From Polyangiales bacterium (GTDB taxonomy: Bacteria; Myxococcota_A; Polyangia; Polyangiales; Ga0077539), in contig JAXLYI010000006.1 in NCBI GenBank assembly GCA_046351555.1, positions 1 through 58,283 on the forward strand: 58,283 bases of DNA, in the 5' to 3' direction. A program made the position numbers and the translations under genes. The notes under the pieces are model-generated. The model saw nothing but the letters and a program-made list of their open reading frames with translations, was not told the DNA's origin and searched no databases. Shown one piece after another: positions 42,861 through 55,476 of this stretch (positions are counted from its first letter, which is position 1; each line of letters begins with the position of its first letter).

Positions 42861-42974
42861 GCCTCCGCTCATCGCAGCGGGCGTGCCGCGCGGGATTCCG
42901 GGGACTCCGCGCGCGGAGCGTCGGGCGCGGCGGACAGGGGCCCGCGCGGGGGTGTCGGGCGGAGCGGACAGGGG

Positions 42975-44030
42975 TCAGCGCCCGCGCGCGCAGGCCCCGC
43001 AGGCAAAGCGCCCCTGGGCGTGGGGCACGCAGCGCTCGCACGCGAGGTGGAGCCGGTCGTCGCAGAGGGCCGGCCGCGCCGTCGCGCCCCCGCAGAGCTC
43101 GCAGGCCAGCAGGTCGAGCGCCTGCGCCCCCGCCGGGAGCGTCACCCGCAGCTCGCGCTCGGCCTTGCGCCGCCGCAGCCGCAAGCGCACGCGCACCGCC
43201 GGCAGGAGCGCCCCCACCATCGCCACCGGGGCGGCCTCCACCTTCGGCGTGTACCGCAGCACCACGTCGCGCAGCCGCGCGTCGCGCTCGGCGACGACCG
43301 CGGCCGCGCGCGCCGCGAGGGCCGCGGCGTCCACCTTGCGCCGCCCCGCGCCCAGCTCCGCCACCAGGCCGGCGAAGTACTCCGTCATGCGCGCGTGGTC
43401 GCGCGCGTGGCGCCGCTCGATCGCCGCCAGCGGCTCCGCGGTCGCCGCCTCCAGCGCGGCGCGCACGCGCGCCGGCAGCGCGGCCGTGAGCGGCGCGAAG
43501 TCACCCGCCGCGGGGCGGAGCCCGCCGACGCCGCGCGCCGGGTCGAGCAGGGCCGTGACGCGCGCCTCGGGCTCGCCCCCGTCGGGGCCCACCGCCACGT
43601 CGAAGGCGCCCTCGTAGCGGTCGTCGGCCTCCACCGACCAGCCCACCGTCGCGCGGAGGTACGGCGCCTCCAGCGACGCCGCGTCGACGACGTCGGCGAG
43701 CCCGTTGCGCACCACCAGCCGCGCGGCCAGCGAGGTCGCCTGCGACGCCTTCGGCGCGTCGACCTCGGGCGCCGCCACCGCCCACGGCACCCCCGCCCGC
43801 GCCGACACGGTGAGCGCCTCGAGCAGCGGCGACCCGATGCCGCACGCGACGGCTGCGCCGTCGGCCGGCGACGCCGCGAGCGCCACCTCCTCGGGCAGCG
43901 CGAGGGCCCTCGCAAGCTCGGCCGGCAGGAGCGCCTCGACGCGGCCCTCGCGCGCGTCCACCAGGGCCCCGCGCGCGGCGAGGGCGCGGGCGGCGAAGTC
44001 GAGCGGGTCGGGGAGGTCGGCGGCGCTCAC
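42975..44030 (-). CDS. Hypothetical protein with a C-terminal Cys-rich zinc-ribbon, translationally coupled to the SNF2 helicase
   Basis: GTG start overlaps the helicase TGA stop (GTGA). C-terminus reads LLACELCGG...ALCDDRLHLACERCVPHAQGRFACGAC, with CxxC pairs. Confidence 0.6.
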   Translation of the reverse strand: MSAADLPDPLDFAARALAARGALVDAREGRVEALLPAELARALALPEEVALAASPADGAAVACGIGSPLLEALTVSARAGVPWAVAAPEVDAPKASQATSLAARLVVRNGLADVVDAASLEAPYLRATVGWSVEADDRYEGAFDVAVGPDGGEPEARVTALLDPARGVGGLRPAAGDFAPLTAALPARVRAALEAATAEPLAAIERRHARDHARMTEYFAGLVAELGAGRRKVDAAALAARAAAVVAERDARLRDVVLRYTPKVEAAPVAMVGALLPAVRVRLRLRRRKAERELRVTLPAGAQALDLLACELCGGATARPALCDDRLHLACERCVPHAQGRFACGACARGR

Positions 44031-46708
44031 GCTTCGAAGTCCCCCCCGAAGAGCGCCTCGTCGAGGCTGCGGGTCTTCTCGTAGCGGCCTCGGGCGGCGA
44101 GGAGCTCGGCGGCGAGGCGGTCGAAGGTCGCGTCGACCTCGGCGTCGGTCTTCGCGCGGGCCACCGACTGGACGAGCCAGTCCTCGAGGTCGCGCTCCTC
44201 GGCGAGGTTGCCGAGCACCATGTCCATCTCGCCCACCACGAGCTGGAAGAGCTGCACGCGGCGGTCGAGCACGTCGAGGACGCGCTCCTCGATCGTGTCC
44301 TTCGAACAGAGGTTGTAGACGTGCACCTCGCGGGTCTGCCCCATGCGGTGCAGGCGGCCGATGCGCTGCTCGATGGCCATGGGGTTCCAGGGGAGGTCGT
44401 AGTTGACGAGGACGTTGCAGTGCTGGAGGTTGTGGCCCTCGCTGCCGGCCGCGGTGGCGACCATCACCACGGCCCCGCCCGCGCGGAAGCGCTCGAGCGC
44501 CGCGGCCTTCTCCCGCGCGTCGAGCCCGCCGTGGAAGGCCACCGCCGCCACGCCCGCCCGCTCCACCGCCGCCACCACCTCGTCGAGCGTCTCGCGGTAC
44601 CGCGTGAACACCAGCGCCGGCTCGCGCCGCGCCGCCACCACCTGGAGGAGCGCCGCCGCCTTGCCCGACGCGCCCGCCGCCGTGGCGAGCCGCTCGATCA
44701 CCCCGAGCTTCTCGCGGACCTCCTTCTTGTCCGCCCCCTTCGCCTTCTCGCGCATCCGGGCGACGGTGGCCCGCACCGCGCGCGGCGACGAGCCCGCCTC
44801 CAGCAGCAGCGACGTGGCCGCGAGCTGGAGCCCCGCGTCCTCGTGGTGGATCCGCACGAAGGCCAGCACCATCGCGTAGAGCGCGCGCTCGTCGTCGGAC
44901 ATCGGCACGGCGACGGTGGTGACGAAGCGCGGCGGCAGCGCGAGGCCCGACTGGGCGCGGGTGTTGCGCACCATCACCTCGGCGAGCAGCGCGCGGAGGG
45001 CCTCGCGGTCCTTCGGGCGCGTCGGGTCCTTCGGGTCGACGAAGCGCTTGCGGAAGGCCGCCGGCGTGTCGAACTGCCCGGGCCGCAGCAGCGTGACGAG
45101 GTTGTAGATCTCCTCCAGGTCGTTCTCCACCGGCGTCGCCGTGACCAGGAGGAGGAAGCGCTGCTTGAGCCCGACGACGAGCTTGTAGCCCATGGTCGCG
45201 CGGTTCTTGATGTGGTGCGCCTCGTCGACGATCACCACGTCCCAGGGGTGCGCCTGCACCACCGGCGCGTGGCGCGCGGCGCGCGCGAGGGAGAGCGACG
45301 CCACCACCACCCCGGGCCCCGACCAGAAGCCCTCCGGGTCGTCCTTCGCGCGCGGGTCGTCGGTGGTGCGGGCGGCCACCCCCGCCTTCTGCGCGAGCTC
45401 CCCGGCCCACTGCGGCACCAGCGACGCCGGGGCGAGCACCAGCGCGCGCCGGGCCATGCCCCGCACCTGGTACTCGCGCAGCACCATCATCGCCTCCACC
45501 GTCTTCCCGAGGCCCACCTCGTCGGCCAGGATCCCTCGGCCCCGCAGCGCGCGCAGCACGCGCCGCACCGTCTCCGTCTGGTAGCGGTGCGGGACGACGT
45601 CGCGCATCGTCGCCACCGCCAGCAGCTCGTCGAACTGCGCCGCCGACGCGAGCCGTTGCGCGTCGAGCGCCAGCGCCACCGCGCCGAGCGGCGACGGCGG
45701 CGACGCCAGCACCGCGGCGAAGCGGGCGACGTCCAACGTCGGCAGCGCGCGGGCCGCGGGCGCGAAGGCCGGCGCCTCCGGGAGTGAAGGCGCGGCGGGG
45801 GCCTTCGGCGCAGCGGGCGCGGGCGCGGCGGGAGCGGGCGCAGCGGAAGCCACGGGTGCGGCGGAAGCGGCGGGCGCAGCGGAAGCCACGGGCGGGCGGC
45901 GCACAAGCAGGTCCCGCACCTCGCGGCGCTGGAGGAGCTCGCGCACGCGCCGCTCGAGGAGGGCCTTCGGCAGCCGCCCGAACTCCCCCGCCGGCAGCCG
46001 CGCGAAGGAGGCCGCGTCGCGCACCGACTGGGCGATCCGCTCGGCGAGGCGCGCGGGGTTGTTCACCGCGAGGCCCGCGTCGGCGAGGACGGCGACCGCC
46101 TTCTCCGCGGTGAGCCGGTGGGGCTTGCAGAGCGCCATCGCGGCGGCCAGCAGGTCGCTGCCGGTGAGGTGATCGGCGGCGTGGCGGGCGCCGAGCAGCG
46201 CCCGGAGCGTCGCGTCGTCGTCCGCGGGGGGCGGCTCCGTGGGCGGGGCCTTCGCGCGGCGCGACGGTGCCTTCACCCGTTCGGGCGTTGGGATGGGGAG
46301 CACCGGCATCCCCGCCGCCCCCCGCACGAGCGAGTGCCCGCGCGCGAGCGGGTCGACCGCGGCGGCCTTCACCTCCCAATAGCGCCGCTCGTACTCGCCC
46401 GCCCGCGCCGGGTCGTCGACGATCTGCGCGCGGAGCGCCATCAGCCAGAGCGCCGCGTCGGGGCCCTGTTGGAGGTCGACGGCGAGGGCGGTCTGGGGGC
46501 GACCGTGGGGCGGCCGGGCAAAGAAGTGCTCGACGCCAGCGTGCTGCTGGTTGTCCTCGGTCGACCGCGCGACGAGCGCGACGCGCCGGCAGTCGCACTC
46601 GGGGAGCGGGCAGTAGAAGTCGAAGACGTGGGCGACGCCGACGTCCGGGAGCGTGACGGAGATGGACCAGCCCCGCGGGTCGAGGCGCTGCCACGCGATC
46701 AGCGACAC
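44027..46708 (-). CDS. SNF2-family (RapA/HepA-like) DNA-dependent ATPase/helicase with a ~340-aa uncharacterised N-terminal region
   Basis: Motif I ADEVGLGKTVEAM, motif II VVIVDEAHHIKN, motif III LLLVTATPVEN, and helicase-C motifs VATAAGSEGHNLQ and QRIGRLHRMGQ. Confidence 0.85.
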   Translation of the reverse strand: MSLIAWQRLDPRGWSISVTLPDVGVAHVFDFYCPLPECDCRRVALVARSTEDNQQHAGVEHFFARPPHGRPQTALAVDLQQGPDAALWLMALRAQIVDDPARAGEYERRYWEVKAAAVDPLARGHSLVRGAAGMPVLPIPTPERVKAPSRRAKAPPTEPPPADDDATLRALLGARHAADHLTGSDLLAAAMALCKPHRLTAEKAVAVLADAGLAVNNPARLAERIAQSVRDAASFARLPAGEFGRLPKALLERRVRELLQRREVRDLLVRRPPVASAAPAASAAPVASAAPAPAAPAPAAPKAPAAPSLPEAPAFAPAARALPTLDVARFAAVLASPPSPLGAVALALDAQRLASAAQFDELLAVATMRDVVPHRYQTETVRRVLRALRGRGILADEVGLGKTVEAMMVLREYQVRGMARRALVLAPASLVPQWAGELAQKAGVAARTTDDPRAKDDPEGFWSGPGVVVASLSLARAARHAPVVQAHPWDVVIVDEAHHIKNRATMGYKLVVGLKQRFLLLVTATPVENDLEEIYNLVTLLRPGQFDTPAAFRKRFVDPKDPTRPKDREALRALLAEVMVRNTRAQSGLALPPRFVTTVAVPMSDDERALYAMVLAFVRIHHEDAGLQLAATSLLLEAGSSPRAVRATVARMREKAKGADKKEVREKLGVIERLATAAGASGKAAALLQVVAARREPALVFTRYRETLDEVVAAVERAGVAAVAFHGGLDAREKAAALERFRAGGAVVMVATAAGSEGHNLQHCNVLVNYDLPWNPMAIEQRIGRLHRMGQTREVHVYNLCSKDTIEERVLDVLDRRVQLFQLVVGEMDMVLGNLAEERDLEDWLVQSVARAKTDAEVDATFDRLAAELLAARGRYEKTRSLDEALFGGDFEA

Positions 46709-46776
46709 GCGTCAACCGCTACCACACCCCCAACCGGCGCCGCGAACCGAAACGGGAGGCGATCCCTGAGGCGCTC

Positions 46777-46960
46777 TGCGCCGACCCCGTGTCACGGGGC
46801 GACCGGTTCCGGGAGCGGTCCGCGCCGACCCCACCCCACCGGGCGACCGGTCCCGGGAGCGGTCTGCACCGACCCCGTCTCATGGATCGACCGGTTCCGG
46901 GAGTGGTTCGCGCCGACCCTGACCATCGCGCGACCGGTTCCGGGAGCGGTCGGCCGATGG
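46777..46960. repeat. Tandem array of about 4.5 copies of a 44-nt unit carrying the hairpin GACCG-GTTCCGGGAG-CGGTC, immediately upstream of the SNF2 gene
   Basis: Units begin at 46799, 46843, 46887 and 46930, with a partial unit before 46799. A ~33-nt conserved core CGACCGGTTCCGGGAGCGGTCYGCRCCGACCCY is followed by ~11 variable nt. Confidence 0.65.
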
Positions 46961-47099
46961 GAGCGTCAGCGCGATACCCACCCCGCCCGTCCCACCGCAG
47001 TGCGGGTTGACCGTCTGGCACCCCGGCGCCTCCAACGAGCACTCGGCAAACCGCTGCGCGTGAGTCGGCCGTGGGAAGGTGGGGACGCCTCGATGGGCC

Positions 47100-47245
47100 G
47101 GTCGTCGGGGTTCTCCAGCGCGACCCCCGCGGCGACGAACCGGTAGGACGGTGAAGCGCCGCACCGTCTCCCGCGTGTTGGGCGCGTACACCTTCCCGTA
47201 GCTCCGCTCGGAAGCATCATCGGCGTGATCCCCATGCAGGGCGAG
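47100..47245 (-). pseudogene. Roughly 140-bp fragment duplicating an internal 3'-region segment of the methyltransferase gene (copy of 51476-51615)
   Basis: About 95% nucleotide identity to 51476-51615. Translates to ERSYGKVYAPNTRETVRRFTV...FVAAGVALENPDDR, the same peptide as in the methyltransferase C-terminal region. Confidence 0.6.
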
Positions 47246-47319
47246 CGCACCAAAATCGCTTGAATTGCAGCCTCGCGGCGGGGTTGCCAGTTGCAGCCCA
47301 TGGGGCCACCCCAGACGCA

Positions 47320-50300
47320 GGGTCATGGGGCCGGGGAGAGGCGAGGCGTCACCCGTTGGTAACCCGGAGACGCCGCCTCGGCGTCGAGGGCCTCGAGGAG
47401 GGGCGCGGAGCGACCCGACGACGTCTCTTGCTGGATCATGGGGCCACCTCGGTGACGTCGGCGACGACGATCCCGGTGTTGCTCCTCGCCGCCAACGTCG
47501 CCAAGTTCGATCTCGCGACGACGCGCGCGAGGGTGCGAGTGCACCTTCGGCTGCGGCGCGCTCGGCGGCGGCGACGTTACGTTCGGCTTCTGCCGCGGGC
47601 AGGTACGTCTCGCCGTCATCGAAGTCGAACGCCGTTCTTCACAGGTCCACCGCGCTCTGCGCCAGCGCACGTCGTCGAACATCGCCAGACCCGCCTCTTC
47701 CTCCTGCTCATCGACGCGCGCGAAGTCGTCGATGATCAGCAGGTCCACCGACGACAGCGACGCCATCTCCGCGTCCCGCGAGTTGTCCAGCCGGCTCTGC
47801 CGCAGGCGCCGCAGCATCGCGTCGGCGCGCCGAAGCACCTGGTAGCCGTAGCGGAGACGCCATCCGCGAGATGCTTCGGCGCGAGGGCTCGCCAGCTCGC
47901 TCAGCACGCGCGCCTCGTAGGAGACCTTCTTCGTCCCACGCCTCCGGCGCATGCCCGGGTCGAGCCCGGCCTCGCGGCGCGCAGCCGCGCCCGACTCGCG
48001 GCGCGAGACCCGTCGCTCAGATCGTCAGCAGCACGTCCTCGACGGCCATGTCCTTCTCGGCGCCGTGAGGCCGCCTGGGCGCGCGTACGATCAAGCGTCC
48101 CAGCCGCAGCCGCTTGAGCACCGAGACCGCTCGGGCAAGAGGGCGCGCGGCGTCATCGCGGGTCCCCCTTGCGCTCGCTCGACGCGCCGGTGCGGAAGTG
48201 CTCAGCCGACCTCGCGAAGCGCGGGCGGAGCGCCACCACCTGCCGTCGCGCCGGCCGGCGTGCCCGGCGCCTGGGCCTGCTTGAGCATGCGGCCGAGCCG
48301 CGTGACGTCCACCACGTTCGAAGGCGAGCGCGTTGGAGACGCTCGACGCGCCCTGTCGCCGTGGGCGTCGCACAGCGCATCGAGCGTACGCCTGGCGCAT
48401 GCGCGTCCACGGCAGGGCCCTCCGACACCGCTCGGCGTACCGCCGATGTGGTCGCCGCGTCGGCGCGCCCTCGCATGCACCGCGTCGACGCTAGCACGCG
48501 AAGTCCGCCTTGCCCTCGGGTAGTCAGCGCGGTCGTCGTGCGCTTGCCGGCGCGGTGCGGACGTGCGCCTTGATCAGCTCGTGCCGAGGTACGCGGACGT
48601 CGTGCGGTCGACACCCGCACCGACTGGCCGATCTAGCGAGACCACCTCGCTCTGGAGGCTCCCTGCTGGAGATGCCGGACCGCGCGGATCGCCGCGCGGT
48701 CGCCGGGAAGGCGGGTGAGCTGCTGAGCAAGCACTCGCGGCGCGCGCTCGGCGCGCCGCGTCGATCGAGGCGATCGTCGCCTGCGCGCGCGACACGATGG
48801 GCGTCGCGCAGGCCCCGGCTGGAGGGCAGGGCGCGGGTACGGCACGTCGTGTCCGAGATGCTCCGGCACCGCGAGAGGTCGGGAGGTCGACCAGCGTAAG
48901 CTCCGCGCGCTGCTGGAGTCGCGCCCCGAGCTCGGCGCGATGGCGCGGTGGGTGGGGCTGGTGACGACCGGGGTGCTCCTCGGCCGTCGGCGACCCGCTC
49001 GACTTCCACCACGCGGGCGCCTACGAGAGGAAGGCGTGCGGGCTCAACCCCTCAAGGGCACGACAACGGCACGGCCGCGCGCGGCGGGGCTTCATCACCC
49101 GCGCGGCTCCGCGTGCGCGCGCGCAAGTACCTGGCCACGTATTCCAGTGCTGCGGTGGAAGGCCGCGACCGCGCGACATGCGCCTGAGTCGAGCGCCGCC
49201 GGAGCTGGCGCGCAAGGGCAAGGTCTCCGCGCTGGTGGCGCTGATGCGCAAGGCCGTCAAGCGCGCCCTCTGGCACCTGCGCCGTGGGCAGGACTACGAG
49301 GCGGGCAAGCTCTTCGATCTGCGTCGACTCACGCTCACGCCCCGGCGCGAGGCCACGCTCATCACCGAGTCCGACGCGGGCGGCGGTACCGTGCCCGCCG
49401 ACGCACGACGATGCGACGACGACGGCGCCCGCGCGCGATGGCGCGTCGGGCGCGGCGGCCGCGTCCGGAGGCGACGGCGACTAACGCGACGAAGGCCACG
49501 ACGAAGGCCGCGACGAAGGCGGCGACGAAGGCCACGACGAAGATCCGCGACGGGCGACGACGCCGCGGCGGTGAGGCCGCGCGCGACGACGCATCGAAGG
49601 CGACGCGCGCGCACGCGAAGCGCGAGGCCCGGGGCGGCAAGCGACGGGGATCGCGCGAGGAGCCGACGGCGCGGCACCGGAACGCGGGCCGCGTGCGGGC
49701 GCGTTCGATGGCGCCGCCCCGGGCGCTGCTTCGGCAGGCGCTGGGGCGCATCGCCCGCAGCCGCGGGAGCAGGTCGTCGCCCGCCCTCGTCGGCCGCGTC
49801 ACTCATCTGCCCGAGGTCGTGCGGGGTGACGACGGCGTCGCGCACGTGCTCGCCGAAGCGAACGGGCGTCGGCACGGGGGCCGGCGGCGCTGGCGCCGTG
49901 CTCGCACAGCAGGCCCAGCGCGCCGGGGTCGTCGGTGCCGCGGCGTCCCGGCCACCGCCTCGCGCAGCGCCTCGGCGCCTAGAGGTCGAGCGCCACGATG
50001 GAGCGCGCCACGGCGTTGCCCAGGTTGCGCCCGGCGTCGAGCCAGCGCGCCAGCTCGCGTCGATGCCGGGCGCCTCGGCGCGCAGCCGGTCGCGCCCCTT
50101 GAGCCCCTGGCCGCGCGGCGCTCGGCCACCAGCTCGGCGCGGTGCTCGCGTGCTCGGAACGACCGTCGGCGGCCCCAGGATCGCGCGTGCGGGCGACCTC
50201 CGTACGCGCCGTCCAACAGCTGCACGCGCGCGTCGTCGGCGGCCATCGTCAGTGCGGCCCGCCCACGCCGGCGGCACCGGTAGAGGTTGGTGTCGAGCCG

Positions 50301-51130
50301 CGCGAAGGCCGTCCGGTCGATCGCCACGGGCACGACCTGCTCGGGCGGGGCATCGGGTCGGGCAGCGCCAGCAGCTTCGTGCGCCCTCGGCGAAGGCGCC
50401 GACGGTGCGATCGGGCAGGCGCGGGTGGGGCCGCCGGCGCCACCTCGCGCAGGAACTCCCCGAGCTCGCGGTTGCCCTGCGCCACGTCGCGATCGCGCCT
50501 GCCAGGAAGCGGTCGCGACAGGTAGCGACATCGCGCGCTCCACGCGGCCTTCTCCGCGTGCGCCCGCACCGTGCAGAGCCGCGCCTGCGTGCAGAAGGCC
50601 GCGGAGAGCTCGACCACCGCGGGGTGGAAGCCGCGCCTCAGCACCGGTGCGCGGGTTGTCGAAGAGCCACTGCCGCGGCGACCCTCCGAAGAAGGCGTGG
50701 CGCGGATCGGGAGCGGCGCAGCGAGGCGCGTCGGTCCCAGACGCACTCGGCGAAGAGCATCCGCGACCAGGAGAGCACCATCACGAAGAGCCACAGCCCG
50801 CGGCGCCCGCGGCCTCGCCGCCGACGAAGGCCAGTCGACCTGCGCCTGCTCGCCGACGAGGGTCTCGGTGCGCAGGAAGGCGCCCGCGGCGAGGCTGGCG
50901 CGCCGCGCGACGCCCCGCAGCGTGCGCACCGAGCCCTTGTAGCGGGGCGAGCATGTCGGCCGCGGCGCGCAGCGGTAGCGCGCCGGTCTGCGCGATGCCG
51001 AAGGACTCGCTCCCGATCCACGCGCAGAGTCGAGGACAGCGCGCCGGCGTCGACGCGAGGGCGCCGACGCGCGAAGAGCGTGTCGGGACCTTCATGCGCC
51101 CGAACGGGCGCGAAGGCACTCAACGCGGCG
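47320..51130 (-). mobile_element. Heavily degraded IS21-family element (istA transposase and istB helper remnants with many frameshifts), plus ~1.7 kb of unassignable decayed sequence
   Basis: IstB-like remnant at 47323-47952 (LRRLRQS...VDLLIIDDFARVDEQEEEAGLAMFDDV). IstA-like remnants between about 49800 and 51120 in different frames (LVGEQAQVDWP; LFVMVLSWSRMLFAE; LDTNLYRCRRRGRAALTMAADDARVQLL). No intact ORF. Confidence 0.5.
49486..49542. repeat. 12-nt tandem repeat (GCGACGAAGGCC-like), about 4.75 copies
   Basis: Reads GCGACGAAGGCCACGACGAAGGCCGCGACGAAGGCGGCGACGAAGGCCACGACGAAG. Confidence 0.7.
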
Positions 51131-51218
51131 CGCGGATTTTTCGAGGCTCTGCCGATTCCTACTTGCCTATGACAGCGCACGGGCTCTACCTCCCGCACGA
51201 ACCATCCCCCCGTCAGGA

Positions 51219-53344
51219 TCAGTACGGCCCGAGGAAGCGCTCGCCGTTGAAGTGTATCATGTGGGTCGGGGCGTCGGCGCACCACACCTCGGTAAGCACC
51301 GGCACCCGCGACATCTCCCGCTCCTTCGCGTAGCGGGCGCGGAGCGTCTCCACCGTGGCCAGCCACCGCGCGAGCGCGCCGCTCCAACGCGCCGTCCCAT
51401 AGCGTTGGAGCACGGCGAGCACCCCCGGCTCGATCTGGTAGACCGCCTTGGGGCTGTTGGTCGGGCGCGACCGGTCGTCGGGGTTCTCCAGCGCGACCCC
51501 CGCGGCGACGAACCGGTGGACGGTGAAGCGCCGCACCGTCTCCCGCGTGTTGGGCGCGTACACCTTCCCGTAGCTCCGCTCGAAGAACTGCATCATCGGC
51601 GTGATCCCCATGAGCGGCGCCGACGCCTCCGCCCAGGGACGCTCCGCCGTCAGGTCGACGAGCGCGAGGAGCGTGAGCGCCGACCGCTCGTTCTGCTGCT
51701 CGCGCGGCAGTCCGATGGCCTCCAACACGGACAGGGCCTCGTCGATGCGACGCCTCGCCGCCACCGGGTCGATGGCCGTTGGTTTCTTGTCTCCCATACG
51801 AAACAACACCTCGTCCACGGCGCGATCGACCGCCCCTTGCGTGGCGAGCGACTTCCCCGCGGCATCGCCGAGCGCCTCGAGCTGTGCGCGGGTCGGGTAC
51901 GGCATCTTGCGGAGGTCGGTCGCGTTCACCTGCGTGTGCCCGCTCCAGGCGCGGAAATGCGCGTCGACGAGCGTCGAGTTGAGCCACACCGTCAGCCCGC
52001 GCGCGAGCCGCTCGGGCACCCCAGCGCCGTCGCAATGGAACACGTTGAGGTGGTTTTCGAACCCGACGCGCCCCCGCGCGACCGCCGCCGGTTCGTAGAG
52101 GGCGGCGACGATGCGGCGCGGCTCCTCCTTCGAGGAGAAGCGCTTCGTCAAGACGTAGGTGCCCTCCGGCAGCAGGAGGGCGGCGGTCTCCGCGTTGTCG
52201 TCGATCGCGTTGGGCTTGCGCGATCCCTCGCGCGGCCACGCCACCCCTCCGCCCGCGAGGTGCAGCGGGTAGATGAGCGGGGCCGTGGTGCGCGCCGGTC
52301 GGTCGTGGAGGTGGGCGCGGGCGCGGAAGTCCACCACGCGGCCGGTCGACGCCTGGAGCCCGAGGTCGGCGAGCGTCGAGCGGAACGTCGCCATCCGCTC
52401 GCTCACGGCGCCGCCGAGTCCGTCGGACACGATGTGGACGATGCGTTCGGGGTCGTCGGGTCGCACGACCTCCGCGAAGGGAACCTCCCGCACGAGCGGC
52501 GCAGGGTCCTCGGGGCAGGTCGCCGACGAGACCGTGACGCGCCCGCGCGGCGCCCCGTCCTTCACCGCGTGGAAGATCACGGTCTCCTGGAGCACGTCGT
52601 CGTCGGCGAAGGCGCGGTCACGCCGCTCGAAGACGTGGAGCCGCAGGAGCCTCATGCGCGCGAGGAAGCGCTCGCGGAAGGGGCGGAAGTAGGGGCCGTT
52701 GCAGAAGCTCCGCGGGGTGATGGCGACCAAGCTCGCCGCCGGGCTCGAGCAGGTCGACCGCGACCGCGAGGAAGGCCGTGTGGAGGTTGCTCGTCTCGAG
52801 GCCGATCCGCTGGAGCGCGCGCCTCGGGCGAGTCCGCGCGGATCTTGTGTTACGGCGGGTTGAGGATCGCGGCGTTGAAGGCGCCTCGCTGCGTCGCGAA
52901 GAGGCCGCCGTCGAGCGCGCCCACCCCCGAGGCGATGAAGTTTTCGACGTGGACCCGGGCCTCGACCCGGAGGCCGGCGGCCGCGCCGTGCTCCTCGCAC
53001 GCGGTGAGCGTCTCGCGCAGGTACCGCGCGAGCGTCGGGTCGACCTCCCACGCGTCGACCGTGATGGATGTCGGGCGCGCGGGACGTCCGGCGAACGCCT
53101 CGACGGCAGCGGCGGTGAGTGCGCCGACACCAGCGCCCGCGTCGAGCAGGCGGACCTCCGCCGCGTCGGTTCGCAGGAGCGATGCCATGAACGACGCCAC
53201 CGCCGCGGGGGTCATGTACTGCCCGAGCTCGGCCCGCCGCGCCGGGGAGAGCTGGCGCATGGCGTCGACGCGCGCCACGTCGGCGACCTCGCCGGGGTGG
53301 CGGCCCGATGCGAGGAGGGAGGTGGCGAAGCCGGGTTTGCGCAT
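51219..53344 (-). pseudogene. Eco57I-family (gamma-class, NPPY) N6-adenine DNA methyltransferase, inactivated by an in-frame TAA and two frameshifts
   Basis: Motif I LLDAGAGVGAL and motif IV FNAAILNPP are followed directly by TAA. The downstream conserved blocks KIRADSPEARA / ALQRIGLETSNLHTAFLAVAVDLLEPGGEL / VAITPRSFCNGPYFRPFRERFL sit in three different frames. The junctions imply an indel in a GCGCGC run and a 1-nt insertion. Confidence 0.65.
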
Positions 53345-53407: not shown

Positions 53408-54451
53408 TCACCAGGTGTCGGGGAAGTTGCCGCGCGACATCGGCTGCGGCGGCGGCTTCGGCACGGCGACCGCGTCGGCGGCCTTCTTGCGGATCACCTG
53501 CGTCCCCTCCTGCTTGAGCGTCTTGATGGGGCCCTTCACCCACGAGCCCGGGCCCGACACCGCGCCGATCGCGCCCTGCACGCCGTCGCCGATCTTCTGC
53601 CCCATCTCGGGCGACGCGCCGAGGTACTCCGCGCCCGCGCCGATCGCCTGCGACGTGTACGTGCGCTGCGGCACGCCCGTCCAGATCTGCTTCACCGCGG
53701 CCCAGCCCCGGTCGCCCGCGTTGGCGATGAGCGCGCCGCCCGCCACCTGCCCGACGCCCGTCGGCGTCGACGCGAGCCCGACGCCCACCGTCCCCTGCCC
53801 CACCGCGCCCGCGAGGTCGATGCCGCCCGCGACGCGCGGGTACGCCGCGCGGAAGTCCTGGTAGCGCCCCCACGTCTGCCGCATCCCGTACTGCGCCAGC
53901 GACTCGTTGGGACGGCGCGCGAACGACGACGGCTCCTGCGCCGGCTGCTGCGGCTGCGCGGGCTGCTCAGGGGGCTGCGCCGCGGCCTGCTCCTGCGGCG
54001 TCTCGGGCTTCGGCTCGGGGTTCGGGTCGCTCTTCGGCTTGCCGTCCTCGCCGACCTCGTTGGTGGGCTCCGTCCCCTCGTCGAACACCGCCTTGCCCTT
54101 GGTGTTCTTGTCGTTCATCTCGTGCTCGTCCTTGTGACGAATCACGTTCTGGCCCTCGGCGCGCACCGTGGGGGAGTGCTCGACGGGCTCGGTCTTGCCG
54201 CCGCCCGCGTGGGTGCCCGACACCACGCCCTCGCCCGTGCCGCCCTCGTCGCCCTCGACGCCCTGGATGTAGCTCTGCTTCGTGAAGACGCACTGGTTGG
54301 TGGCCCGCACCGTCGGCGTCACCATGCAGGCGTTCTGGTACACCGACACGATCTGGTAGGGCACCGGCGCCGTCGGCGACTTGCAGACGTCGGGGTAGCT
54401 GCTCACGACGAGCGCGCGGGGCGTCTTGCGGGTGAGTTCGAGCTCGCTCAC
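53408..54451 (-). CDS. T6SS PAAR-like (DUF4150) effector with a Pro/Glu/Gln-rich linker and a glycine-zipper-rich C-terminal domain
   Basis: N-terminal DUF4150 pattern YPDVCKSP...GDEGGTGEGVVSGTHAGGGKTEPVEHSPTVRAEGQNVIRHKDEHEMNDKN. C-terminal GxxxG-rich segment (AGAVGQGTVGVGLA, GVGQVAGGALIANAG, AIGAGAEYLGA, GDGVQGAIGAVSG). Confidence 0.7.
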   Translation of the reverse strand: MSELELTRKTPRALVVSSYPDVCKSPTAPVPYQIVSVYQNACMVTPTVRATNQCVFTKQSYIQGVEGDEGGTGEGVVSGTHAGGGKTEPVEHSPTVRAEGQNVIRHKDEHEMNDKNTKGKAVFDEGTEPTNEVGEDGKPKSDPNPEPKPETPQEQAAAQPPEQPAQPQQPAQEPSSFARRPNESLAQYGMRQTWGRYQDFRAAYPRVAGGIDLAGAVGQGTVGVGLASTPTGVGQVAGGALIANAGDRGWAAVKQIWTGVPQRTYTSQAIGAGAEYLGASPEMGQKIGDGVQGAIGAVSGPGSWVKGPIKTLKQEGTQVIRKKAADAVAVPKPPPQPMSRGNFPDTW

Positions 54452-55476
54452 AGCGGGGCCTCCTGCTGGTCGGGGTCGTTGAAGTGCATGCGCAGCTCGG
54501 CCACGCGCACCGCGGGCTCCTCACGCACGGTCAACCGCGAGGTGACGTAGACGAGGCGCCGCGCGAGGTCGATCACCACGGTGTCGAGCTCCATCGGGCG
54601 CATCTCGATCTCGCCCGACTCGTAGCGGAGCAGCGTGAACATCCCGTGGCCCGGCAGCCGGCAGCGCAGCGGCCCCTCGGGGAGCAGGCCCTCGAGCGCG
54701 ATGTCGGCGTCGCTGCGGAGCATCCCGCGCACGGTGAGGTCGGGGTGCGCGCCGTTCCAGTACTCCGAGCGGAAGTCCTTCGGGAGCACGGGCCAGGTGT
54801 GCTTCACCCACGCCTCGTCGTAGGTGCCTGCGAGCGCGAGGCGCGGCGCCCACGCGCGCCCGATGGGGCCGTAGCCCACCGGGGCGGGCTCGGCGAAGGG
54901 GTCGGTGAGGGGCGCGTCGGCCGACTCGATGCGCGGGGCTTCGAAGCGGTCGACGTCCTCCACCGACCAGGGGCGCGCGAAGCCCACGCCCACGGGGTTG
55001 CTCGCGCACGCCTCCTCGCGGTCGCCGCGGCGCGCGACGCCGCCGTGCGCGAGCTCGTAGCAGAGCGGGACGCGGTCGACGGGCTCCGGGTCGGTGAGCC
55101 GCCACGCCTCGCCCTCGCGCACCCACCAGCGTGGGCCCGTGACGCGCAGACGCTTCTCCACCGGACCCACGCGCACGAGCGTCTCCCACGACGGGAGCGC
55201 CTCGCCGTTGGGCGCGCAGGCGTCGCCCACCACCGTCACGTCGGTGAAGGGCTTGTAGGGCGCGAGGTCGCTCTCGAACACCGGGCTCGACGCGCCGGGC
55301 TCGCCGCGGAACACCTCCGCGGTCTGGAGGGGCGTCTGCTCGCGCGCGAGGCGCAGCACCTTGCCGTGCTCCAGGCGCAGCGTCATGCGGCTGACCACGA
55401 CGTGGAAGGGTTCGTCGTCGACGGTGTGCGACTCGAACACCAGCATCGGGAAGGGCGTGTGGTTGCGGGGCCTCAC
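54448..55476 (-). CDS. DUF2169-family T6SS adaptor protein
   Basis: 342-aa protein whose stop overlaps the DUF4150 effector start by 4 nt. Size, position and sequence feel match DUF2169 adaptors that pair with DUF4150 effectors. Confidence 0.6.
   Translation of the reverse strand: MRPRNHTPFPMLVFESHTVDDEPFHVVVSRMTLRLEHGKVLRLAREQTPLQTAEVFRGEPGASSPVFESDLAPYKPFTDVTVVGDACAPNGEALPSWETLVRVGPVEKRLRVTGPRWWVREGEAWRLTDPEPVDRVPLCYELAHGGVARRGDREEACASNPVGVGFARPWSVEDVDRFEAPRIESADAPLTDPFAEPAPVGYGPIGRAWAPRLALAGTYDEAWVKHTWPVLPKDFRSEYWNGAHPDLTVRGMLRSDADIALEGLLPEGPLRCRLPGHGMFTLLRYESGEIEMRPMELDTVVIDLARRLVYVTSRLTVREEPAVRVAELRMHFNDPDQQEAPL

Follow-up and report, generated by a model that had tools for sequence, protein, structure and literature searches.

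Do the genes at positions 42975-53344 of a contig from a Polyangiales bacterium represent the remains of a DISARM-type defence system, and if not, to what kind of system do the intact ones among them belong? The contig (JAXLYI010000006.1, assembly GCA_046351555.1) was analysed over positions 1 to 58,283 of its forward strand, and this whole stretch of 58,283 nucleotides is referred to as the window. An earlier note, written from the letters alone, listed on the minus strand, in this order, an inactivated Eco57I-family N6-adenine DNA methyltransferase, a degraded IS21-like insertion, a 44-nt tandem repeat array, an SNF2-family helicase and a small zinc-ribbon protein, and took the pairing of an adenine methylase with an SNF2 helicase for the core of DISARM. 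All five features are present in that order, with details corrected below, and the interpretation as a DISARM remnant is not supported. In our opinion three unrelated things have come together in these 10 kb, namely a dead restriction-modification (R-M) gene, a polymorphic junk insert and an intact two-gene operon, in which the SNF2 ATPase and its partner would act as the two subunits of one DNA translocase. We consider this explanation, taken as a whole, to be moderately probable. The window has a G+C content of 75%, which gives rise to many spurious open reading frames (ORFs), and therefore genes were judged by the phase of their third-position G+C and by homology.

A strictly linked pair of genes

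The SNF2 gene and the gene of its partner, both intact as the earlier note had it, constitute an autonomous, conserved and strictly linked cassette, which is found in Myxococcota, Desulfobacterota and Binatia as well as in further lineages. When 185,579 species genomes were scanned, 27 cassette loci were returned, from Polyangiales, Kofleriaceae, Myxococcaceae, Desulfatiglandales (including the cultured NaphS2), Desulfobacteraceae and Binatia. The prevalence of the cassette is underestimated by these numbers, since the scan pattern misses many members of the partner family (it catches 40 of 55 close and 20 of 143 distant ones). The partner is co-encoded with an SNF2 gene at 27/27 loci, and in every full-length locus an SNF2 orthologue of 43-65% identity is found by tblastn directly upstream. 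Clustering of the genes from the 27 loci placed SNF2 in all 27 and the partner in 26, with no other family in more than four; for this purpose we used our own gene calls, which on checking matched the deposited calls for the locus L003. Among the contexts with called genes the SNF2 gene lies immediately upstream of the partner in 7 of 7, usually with a 4-nt overlap, and the other neighbours differ. Two distant partner homologues that were re-examined both have SNF2 upstream, and one partner fusion protein of 1,091 aa has none. The conserved linkage that the earlier note had proposed to look for is thus found with SNF2 genes and is not found with methyltransferases.

The stop/start junction between the two genes reads GTGA or ATGA in most homologous loci. 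In the window the GTG start of the partner overlaps the stop codon of the helicase, as had been noticed before, and the translation of SNF2 and of the partner is coupled by this arrangement. Promoter-like or terminator-like sites were not found around the cassette.

The cassette is a dispensable accessory module. In the nearest other taxon (L047), nucleotide identity of 83% extends only over 46665-42975, a span that opens shortly after the SNF2 start and closes at the partner stop, the flanks are unrelated, and there is no R-M gene beside the cassette. Decayed copies are present at two loci, one being a second copy (L024) and the other a partner fragment that comprises aa 282-348 (L033). The former, at 148-982 of L024 from the Myxococcales metagenome-assembled genome Baikal-deep-G131, has SNF2 aa 453-573 fused straight to partner aa 186-352 by an internal deletion of ~1.5 kb, and the same genome possesses an intact cassette (L005/L010).

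Several loci show additional genes in the vicinity of the pair. In Desulfobacteraceae, NaphS2 and Desulfatiglandales (L027-L030), a third gene of ~290 aa without a Pfam match overlaps the partner stop (e.g. 9167-10042 of L029), and in four loci from two phyla a DEAD/Cas3-like helicase is encoded 4-7 kb downstream. A distant cassette at 5446-9180 of L035 comprises a partner with a C-terminal winged helix followed, with a 4-nt overlap, by a second SNF2 protein of 1,244 aa with a SWIM-like CxC...CxH motif at its N-terminus; L002, too, has another large SNF2 gene close by.

The SNF2 ATPase

Most of what is understood about SNF2 ATPases in bacteria concerns RapA or components of multi-gene defence systems such as DISARM, BREX, Zorya and Dpd. 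The protein encoded in the window has a complete set of motifs, and GLGKT, DEAH, TATP and QRIGRxHRxGQ are invariant among its orthologues. Most family members are ~575 aa long and essentially represent the bare core, to which the window protein adds an N-terminal extension (aa 1 to ~335). In agreement with the earlier note, which had left this region unassigned, the extension has no Pfam match within the N-terminal 353 aa scanned. It holds the motif DFYCPLPxCxCR and a Pro/Ala-rich linker, and is common to the closest clade only; one search for its homologues gave 32 candidates, none of them scoring, and another was swamped by low-complexity words. For aa 1-135 (46304-46708), whose DFYCPLPxCxCR motif is shared by L003 and L009, a search of 5.8 billion proteins returned no scoring match, the query itself included, although an 893-aa SNF2 product has been called on an independent metagenome contig (L046, see below). 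The Pro/Ala-rich linker (aa ~272-307), which leads from the extension to the core, is encoded by overlapping 9-, 15- and 18-nt tandem repeats at 45789-45894, and its length varies among orthologues.

The best PADLOC matches of the ATPase are DrmD (E 2e-66), BrxH (4e-63) and HmaA (1.5e-58). With the NCBIfam models it obtains 224.5 bits vs a cut-off of 950 for DISARM_DrmD_b, 215 vs 610 for DISARM_DrmD, 181 vs 576 for RapA (PRK04914) and 179 vs 500 for DpdE. The closest relatives of solved structure are the core of Sulfolobus SSO1653 (PDB 1z63, E 7e-36) and RapA. Judged by these scores, the protein is neither a DrmD orthologue nor RapA; the latter identity, as a core RapA/HepA factor, was among the findings that the earlier note had named as fatal to its proposal.

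The partner protein and its RING-like domain

The partner has 351 aa (one fewer than first counted) and its sequence recurs with 100% identity, as a hypothetical protein, in a metagenome-assembled genome of Polyangiales (Myxococcota). As suspected, it belongs to no described family: it matched nothing in Pfam or NCBIfam, and 0 families of PADLOC-DB v2 at E <= 0.01. The closest clusters (n=57) all consist of proteins of ~350 aa without Pfam domains, and an exhaustive profile search collected 1,284 representatives at 50% identity, 806 of them at E <= 1e-10. In some distant relatives the protein is extended at its C-terminus by a winged helix of the IclR/MarR-like type.

The AlphaFold 2 (AF2) model of the partner (predicted local distance difference test score, pLDDT, 94) comprises an alpha/beta N-terminal domain (~aa 9-105), a long beta-hairpin (112-148), an alpha-hairpin (186-260; 44+25 residues) and a second long beta-hairpin (264-300), followed by a small Cys-rich domain. 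Among 153 members the most conserved acidic and Asn positions are E25, E47, E71, N109 and those of D136-D137-R138; the helix RRxxRDxxRxxxY (206-218), the PRR tip of the alpha-hairpin, RRK 287-289 at the tip of the second beta-hairpin and the eight zinc ligands are likewise conserved, the ligands and several of the basic clusters being invariant. Searches with the fold of the whole protein yielded coiled-coil noise only. The N-terminal domain gave weak fold matches that include RapA and the junction-specific nucleases VRR-NUC and Hjc, and may weakly resemble restriction endonucleases, possibly as a degenerate nuclease fold. A direct comparison of the partner with E. coli RapA by hhalign detected no similarity.

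The Cys-rich domain had been labelled a zinc ribbon. Its eight predicted zinc ligands are invariant in 81/81 aligned domain sequences, and the ligand pattern is found in 174 of 200 family members, most commonly with the spacing seen in the window (C-x2-C-x9-C-x4-H-x2-C-x2-C-x9-C-x2-C). Measured against the C3HC4 pattern of RING domains, C-x2-C-x(9-39)-C-x(1-3)-H-x(2-3)-C-x2-C-x(4-48)-C-x2-C, the sole deviation is a spacing of 4 instead of 1-3 between the third Cys and the fourth ligand, His. Profile matches in the PDB are mainly to RING domains: RNF4 (5.7e-6), RING2/BMI1 (1.3e-4), PCGF5 (3.4e-4), Ring1B, TRIM56 and the arenavirus Z protein. The zinc ribbon of eL37 also matches, at 4e-5, and such scores are inflated by Cys-rich profiles. 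Among the RING families of Pfam, zf-RING_5 is hit by 30 of 55 members below its gathering score, and zf-C3HC4_3, zf-RING_6 and Prok-RING_4 are also below threshold (30, 18, 6 and 5 of 55 for the four RING families). On the basis of the ligand pattern and of the mainly RING-type profile matches we prefer RING-like to zinc ribbon as the description of this presumably zinc-binding module. Distant homologues (P0058-P0200) show an extra CxxC pair in the pattern C..C.........C....H..C..C...C..C....C..C, which suggests a third zinc site.

A 34-nt tandem repeat of 2.2 copies, unrelated to the 44-nt array, runs across the partner stop codon into the downstream spacer (42907-42981).

The dead restriction-modification gene

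The coordinates of all features are collected in Table 1. The region was compared with an 8.2-kb metagenome contig from ENA (L046), obtained via the exact partner protein. By blastn it aligns with 53055-51174 of the window at 99.79% and with 47064-40784 at 99.75%, with 0 gaps, and lacks 47065-51173. In this insert-free allele 400 bp separate the end of the R-M gene from the start of the SNF2 gene downstream.

Table 1. Features of the region 42975-53344, in the order in which they are read on the minus strand
Feature	Position in the window	Strand	Evidence
N-terminal methylase part (type II, N6-adenine-type; frame A, ends ...ILNPP)	52850..53344	-	PADLOC MTase_II PDLC03227 E 5e-31, ORF list, frame plot
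Methylase frameshift zone at motif IV, NPP(Y)	~52730..52890	-	phase plot; three overlapping ORF translations
C-terminal methylase part, BsuBI/PstI endonuclease helix-turn-helix and nuclease tail	51219..52730	-	Pfam, PADLOC
Extra 4,109-bp segment with IS21 wreck	47065..51173	-	blastn of L046 vs window, junction sequences
IstA remnant, aa 107-460 of 496-aa reference, in three frames	49875..50890	-	tblastn, NCBIfam, blastn
IstB fragment, weak match	47686..47832	-	NCBIfam IS21_help_AAA E 2.4e-4, positions 124-172/232
Extra 148-bp copy of the helix-turn-helix-coding part of the endonuclease (= 51471-51619)	47098..47243	-	repeat families D3, D7, D17; alignment
44-nt tandem array, 4.1 copies	46771..46951		Tandem Repeats Finder (TRF) score 208, copy alignment
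SNF2-family ATPase, 893 aa	44027..46708	-	Pfam SNF2-rel_dom E 1e-38, Helicase_C E 2e-23
GTGA overlap of partner start and SNF2 stop (TGA)	44027..44030	-	sequence
Partner protein, 351 aa	42975..44030	-	AF2 model, 55-sequence alignment, family search
RING-like C3HC4 domain	42978..43115	-	C-x2-C-x9-C-x4-H-x2-C-x2-C-x9-C-x2-C

The methylase gene is carried by two ORFs, 53344-52850 and 53051-51219, both recognized by PADLOC as type II methyltransferase (E 5e-31 and 4e-150). Its coding phase switches twice, from A to C to B, right after ...ILNPP, in the region of the NPPY motif, whose NPP is present at the frameshift. Identical breaks occur in L046, an independent contig, which shows that the frameshifts exist in the DNA and did not arise in sequencing. 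The gene does not encode a lone methylase, as had been assumed, and runs on into the helix-turn-helix (HTH) domain of a BsuBI/PstI-type endonuclease: BsuBI_PstI_RE_N (PF17728) matches over positions 2-138 of 140 with E 3.4e-48 (163.5 bits vs a cut-off of 27). Of the catalytic domain, BsuBI_PstI_RE (PF06616), only positions 127-154 of 154 are matched, at 19.4 bits and hence under the cut-off of 27, so that about 126 of the 154 profile positions are missing and the last 28 remain. The best PADLOC model is PDLC03359 MTase_II, a fused methylase-endonuclease profile of 840 positions (E 4e-150), accompanied by REase_II at E 2e-64. Since a single-chain model of methylase and endonuclease fits best, the gene is an R-M unit complete in one fused chain, of which neither activity is left, and with at least two frameshifts and nearly the whole nuclease domain deleted it is a pseudogene. 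The inactivation of the methylase, as first described, stands, and the name Eco57I family obtains slight backing: the raw ORFs give no match to PF07669, and after manual repair of the frameshifts PF07669 reaches 23.5 bits vs a cut-off of 25.3, and MTS 24.8 vs 23.

The resemblance to BsuBI/PstI-type type II R-M systems lies in the endonuclease HTH domain and in the fused methylase-endonuclease profile, both of which match, whereas the window gene has neither a complete catalytic domain nor an uninterrupted reading frame. Directly upstream of it, at 53408-55476 on the minus strand, are the genes of a protein with a PAAR-like toxin domain (Tox-PAAR-like, E 2e-24) and of a DUF2169 protein (E 4e-85), which are type VI secretion-associated effector genes.

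The polymorphic segment and the tandem array

The segment of 4,109 bp is present in some genomes of the population and absent in others. Within it the degraded IS21-like insertion, correctly recognized in the earlier note, could be traced to remnants of both IstA and IstB. With IstA from Aromatoleum, tblastn gave E values of 1.7e-15 and 7e-10, the NCBIfam model transpos_IS21 matched with E 9e-8 (32 bits vs a cut-off of 160), and blastn also hit an annotated istA; the NCBIfam IstB model scored 20.9 bits vs a cut-off of 200. These scores identify the IS21 family and remnants only, not a functional member of it. On the minus strand the segment starts with TGTCATAGGCAAG... (it begins TGTCAT...), and IS21-type ends begin with TG. 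The junction is marked by a 2-bp CT repeat only, and a search for the right inverted repeat of the segment found none that scored above shuffled controls; the terminal inverted repeats and the target duplication of 4-8 bp that characterize IS21 are thus not seen at this segment. The 148-bp duplicate of the HTH-coding part, whose copies differ only by a 1-bp and a 4-bp indel, has its second copy 33 bp from the segment end, and is not a normal IS21 target duplication.

No clean coding phase extends across 46750-51200, and when the junk region was translated in all six frames, with X in place of stops, and scanned against Pfam, only the endonuclease fragments were recovered. The ~1.9 kb between the IstA and IstB remnants (about 47830-49870) had no match in Pfam, in NCBIfam or in the collection of plasmids. 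This gap contains a 12-nt tandem repeat, CGACGAAGGCCA, in 4.7 copies at 49487-49542, and a short plus-strand coding phase at 49200-49470. An IS110-like fragment considered at about 49180-49330 (+) was dropped, as neither Pfam nor tblastn against plasmids backed it. The methylase and the insertion sequence (IS) are ordinary genomic debris.

The 44-nt array is not tied to the IS: it sits in the native spacer between the R-M and SNF2 genes (46709-47064 in the window), and L046 has it within the 400 bp that separate the two genes there. According to TRF its copies match at 77%, and a core 20-mer occurs four times vs 0.03 expected. The "hairpin" reported for the repeat unit corresponds to an imperfect palindrome, and the fold of the array is not significantly better than that of shuffled sequence (z -1.3). 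It was not found in 34 other loci, in the upstream region of the sister taxon L047 or in Rfam, and in metagenomes it met single chance 20-mers only. The array is a local tandem duplication seen only in this lineage.

Possible function of the cassette

Most likely, the cassette encodes a two-subunit DNA translocase of accessory function. SNF2 and partner would be made in a ratio of ~1:1 and would form one complex, in which the SNF2 core, devoid of a targeting domain in most members, would drive ATP-dependent translocation along double-stranded DNA, and the partner would be responsible for target recognition and/or regulation. The partner could bind DNA through the basic tips of its hairpins (PRR, RRRK), through the RRxxRDxxRxxxY helix and, in those relatives that have it, through the winged helix. 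Its N-terminal domain could serve as a degenerate module of the restriction-endonuclease type by which DNA structure is read, and the RING-like domain as a module for protein-protein docking, not as a ubiquitin ligase.

As the use of such a translocase, defence against foreign DNA is quite possible, though we would not put it at an even chance. The sporadic distribution, the unrelated flanks in close relatives and the decayed copies are points for an accessory module of the conflict type, which also fits the company kept both in the window (the dead R-M gene, the IS and the PAAR-like toxin, with DUF2169) and at a few other loci (MNT/HepT, PIN and an endonuclease fragment), and the families that score best with the ATPase are defence helicases (DrmD, BrxH, HmaA) plus RapA. 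A considerable number of observations weigh on the other side. The cassette includes no recognizable effector, its neighbours are mostly housekeeping genes, and defence-like or toxin-antitoxin genes are only scattered among them. Plasmids, phages and viral contigs yielded neither the cassette nor the partner, the cassette is flanked by no repeats, direct or inverted, and tRNA genes are adjacent in 2 of 27 loci only. Within Myxococcota the identity of the partner roughly tracks taxonomy, which fits vertical descent with loss, and that the two proteins form a complex, and that they bind DNA and zinc, is what we infer. It must also be noted that a lineage-specific functional link of the R-M gene with the cassette may exist, since the former is directly upstream, co-oriented and, in the insert-free allele, 400 bp away.

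The same position of the R-M gene could be taken in favour of a DISARM-type remnant, in which methylation by the adenine methylase had labelled self DNA for the SNF2 pair, with remodelling of the system after the methylase had died; DrmD models are indeed the best matches of the ATPase, and in two related species a Methyltransf_32 gene, of a non-DNA type, lies 1-2 genes downstream of the cassette. However, the methylase, being fused to its own BsuBI/PstI endonuclease, made a complete R-M unit alone, and tblastn with both of its parts found no copy in 34 loci fetched, 27 of them with the cassette. The lack of an R-M gene in the sister taxon, the DrmD score far below its cut-off and a partner that matches no PADLOC model point the same way. 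The typical companions, DrmA/DrmB (DUF1998), DrmC (PLD) and DrmE, of which the earlier note, too, had missed DUF1998 and PLD, were found neither among the ORFs scanned in and beside the region nor in the list of the 25 most frequent Pfam families of the neighbours (out of 138 matched). We regard this origin as very improbable. Rather unlikely, yet far more credible, is a role in genome maintenance or transcription conflicts, in which a chromosomal remodeller resembling RapA or Mfd would clear stalled RNA polymerase and other roadblocks or remodel branched DNA, with the partner recognizing the substrate and without any part in immunity. RapA among the closest relatives of the ATPase and the weak matches of the partner N-terminal domain to RapA, VRR-NUC and Hjc agree with it, as do the missing effector, the housekeeping neighbours (with GreA genes nearby in 2 loci), the absence from collections of mobile elements and the taxonomic signal in the partner. 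It is at variance with the sporadic distribution, with the loss of synteny even at 83% nucleotide identity and with the decayed copies, and also with the missed RapA cut-off, the lack of a Tudor N-terminal domain and the negative hhalign comparison of partner and RapA. It is doubtful, finally, that the partner is itself an effector, whose N-terminal domain would be a non-canonical nuclease (with the conserved acidic residues E25, E47, E71, D136 and D137) delivered along foreign DNA by the SNF2 motor, resulting in restriction without modification. We therefore commit ourselves to the two-subunit translocase of accessory function alone, for which defence is a slightly more probable use than genome maintenance.

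Comparison with known systems

For the window, the immediate result of this work is the removal of a false DISARM lead. The cassette resembles the systems that comprise DISARM DrmD, BREX type 3 BrxHII and Hma HmaA in having an SNF2 ATPase core, and, like them, it is accessory and sporadic. It differs from them in that its SNF2 protein remains far under the curated cut-offs and matches the core only, in 2-3 stretches, and in that DrmA/B/C, DrmMI/MII, PglZ, BrxC and others are absent here, whereas those systems have no RING-like coiled-coil partner. From RapA/HepA, whose cut-off it also misses by far, the ATPase is distinguished by the lack of Tudor N-terminal domains, the accessory domains of the cassette being carried by a separate RING-like protein that has no sequence similarity to RapA. 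The minimal prokaryotic SNF2 core of Sulfolobus SSO1653 is the best sequence match in the PDB, but the similarity is confined to the ATPase core, and as far as tested no equivalent of the partner is known there.

No description of a two-gene system of SNF2 and a RING-like protein was found in the searched literature, Pfam, NCBIfam or PADLOC, and the cassette is an uncharacterised but widespread pair, in which a minimal SNF2 core is always accompanied by one undescribed partner (1,284 clusters at 50% identity). The RING-like domain, together with the possible degenerate nuclease fold, suggests how a bare motor could gain target specificity. If the cassette is an immune system, it represents a new two-gene type, and if it is a repair or transcription factor, a new bacterial remodeller.

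In the eukaryotic proteins Rad5/HLTF, Rad16 and SHPRH, a C3HC4 RING that acts as a ubiquitin ligase is located inside the helicase polypeptide. These proteins were not among the 60 best PDB matches of the window ATPase, and families of E1, E2 or ubiquitin-like proteins were not among the 25 commonest neighbour Pfam families listed. It is tempting, if improbable, to see in the pair an unrecognized two-protein system in which an SNF2 motor is assisted in trans by a binuclear zinc domain of the RING type, either as an immune system against mobile elements without a classical nuclease or as a bacterial counterpart of Rad5/HLTF, SHPRH and Rad16; the kinship to eukaryotic RING-bearing SNF2 remodellers would then possibly be an evolutionary one. 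What the cassette and these remodellers have in common is the combination of an SNF2 motor with a RING-type zinc domain, and what sets them apart is that the cassette carries its RING-like domain on a separate protein.

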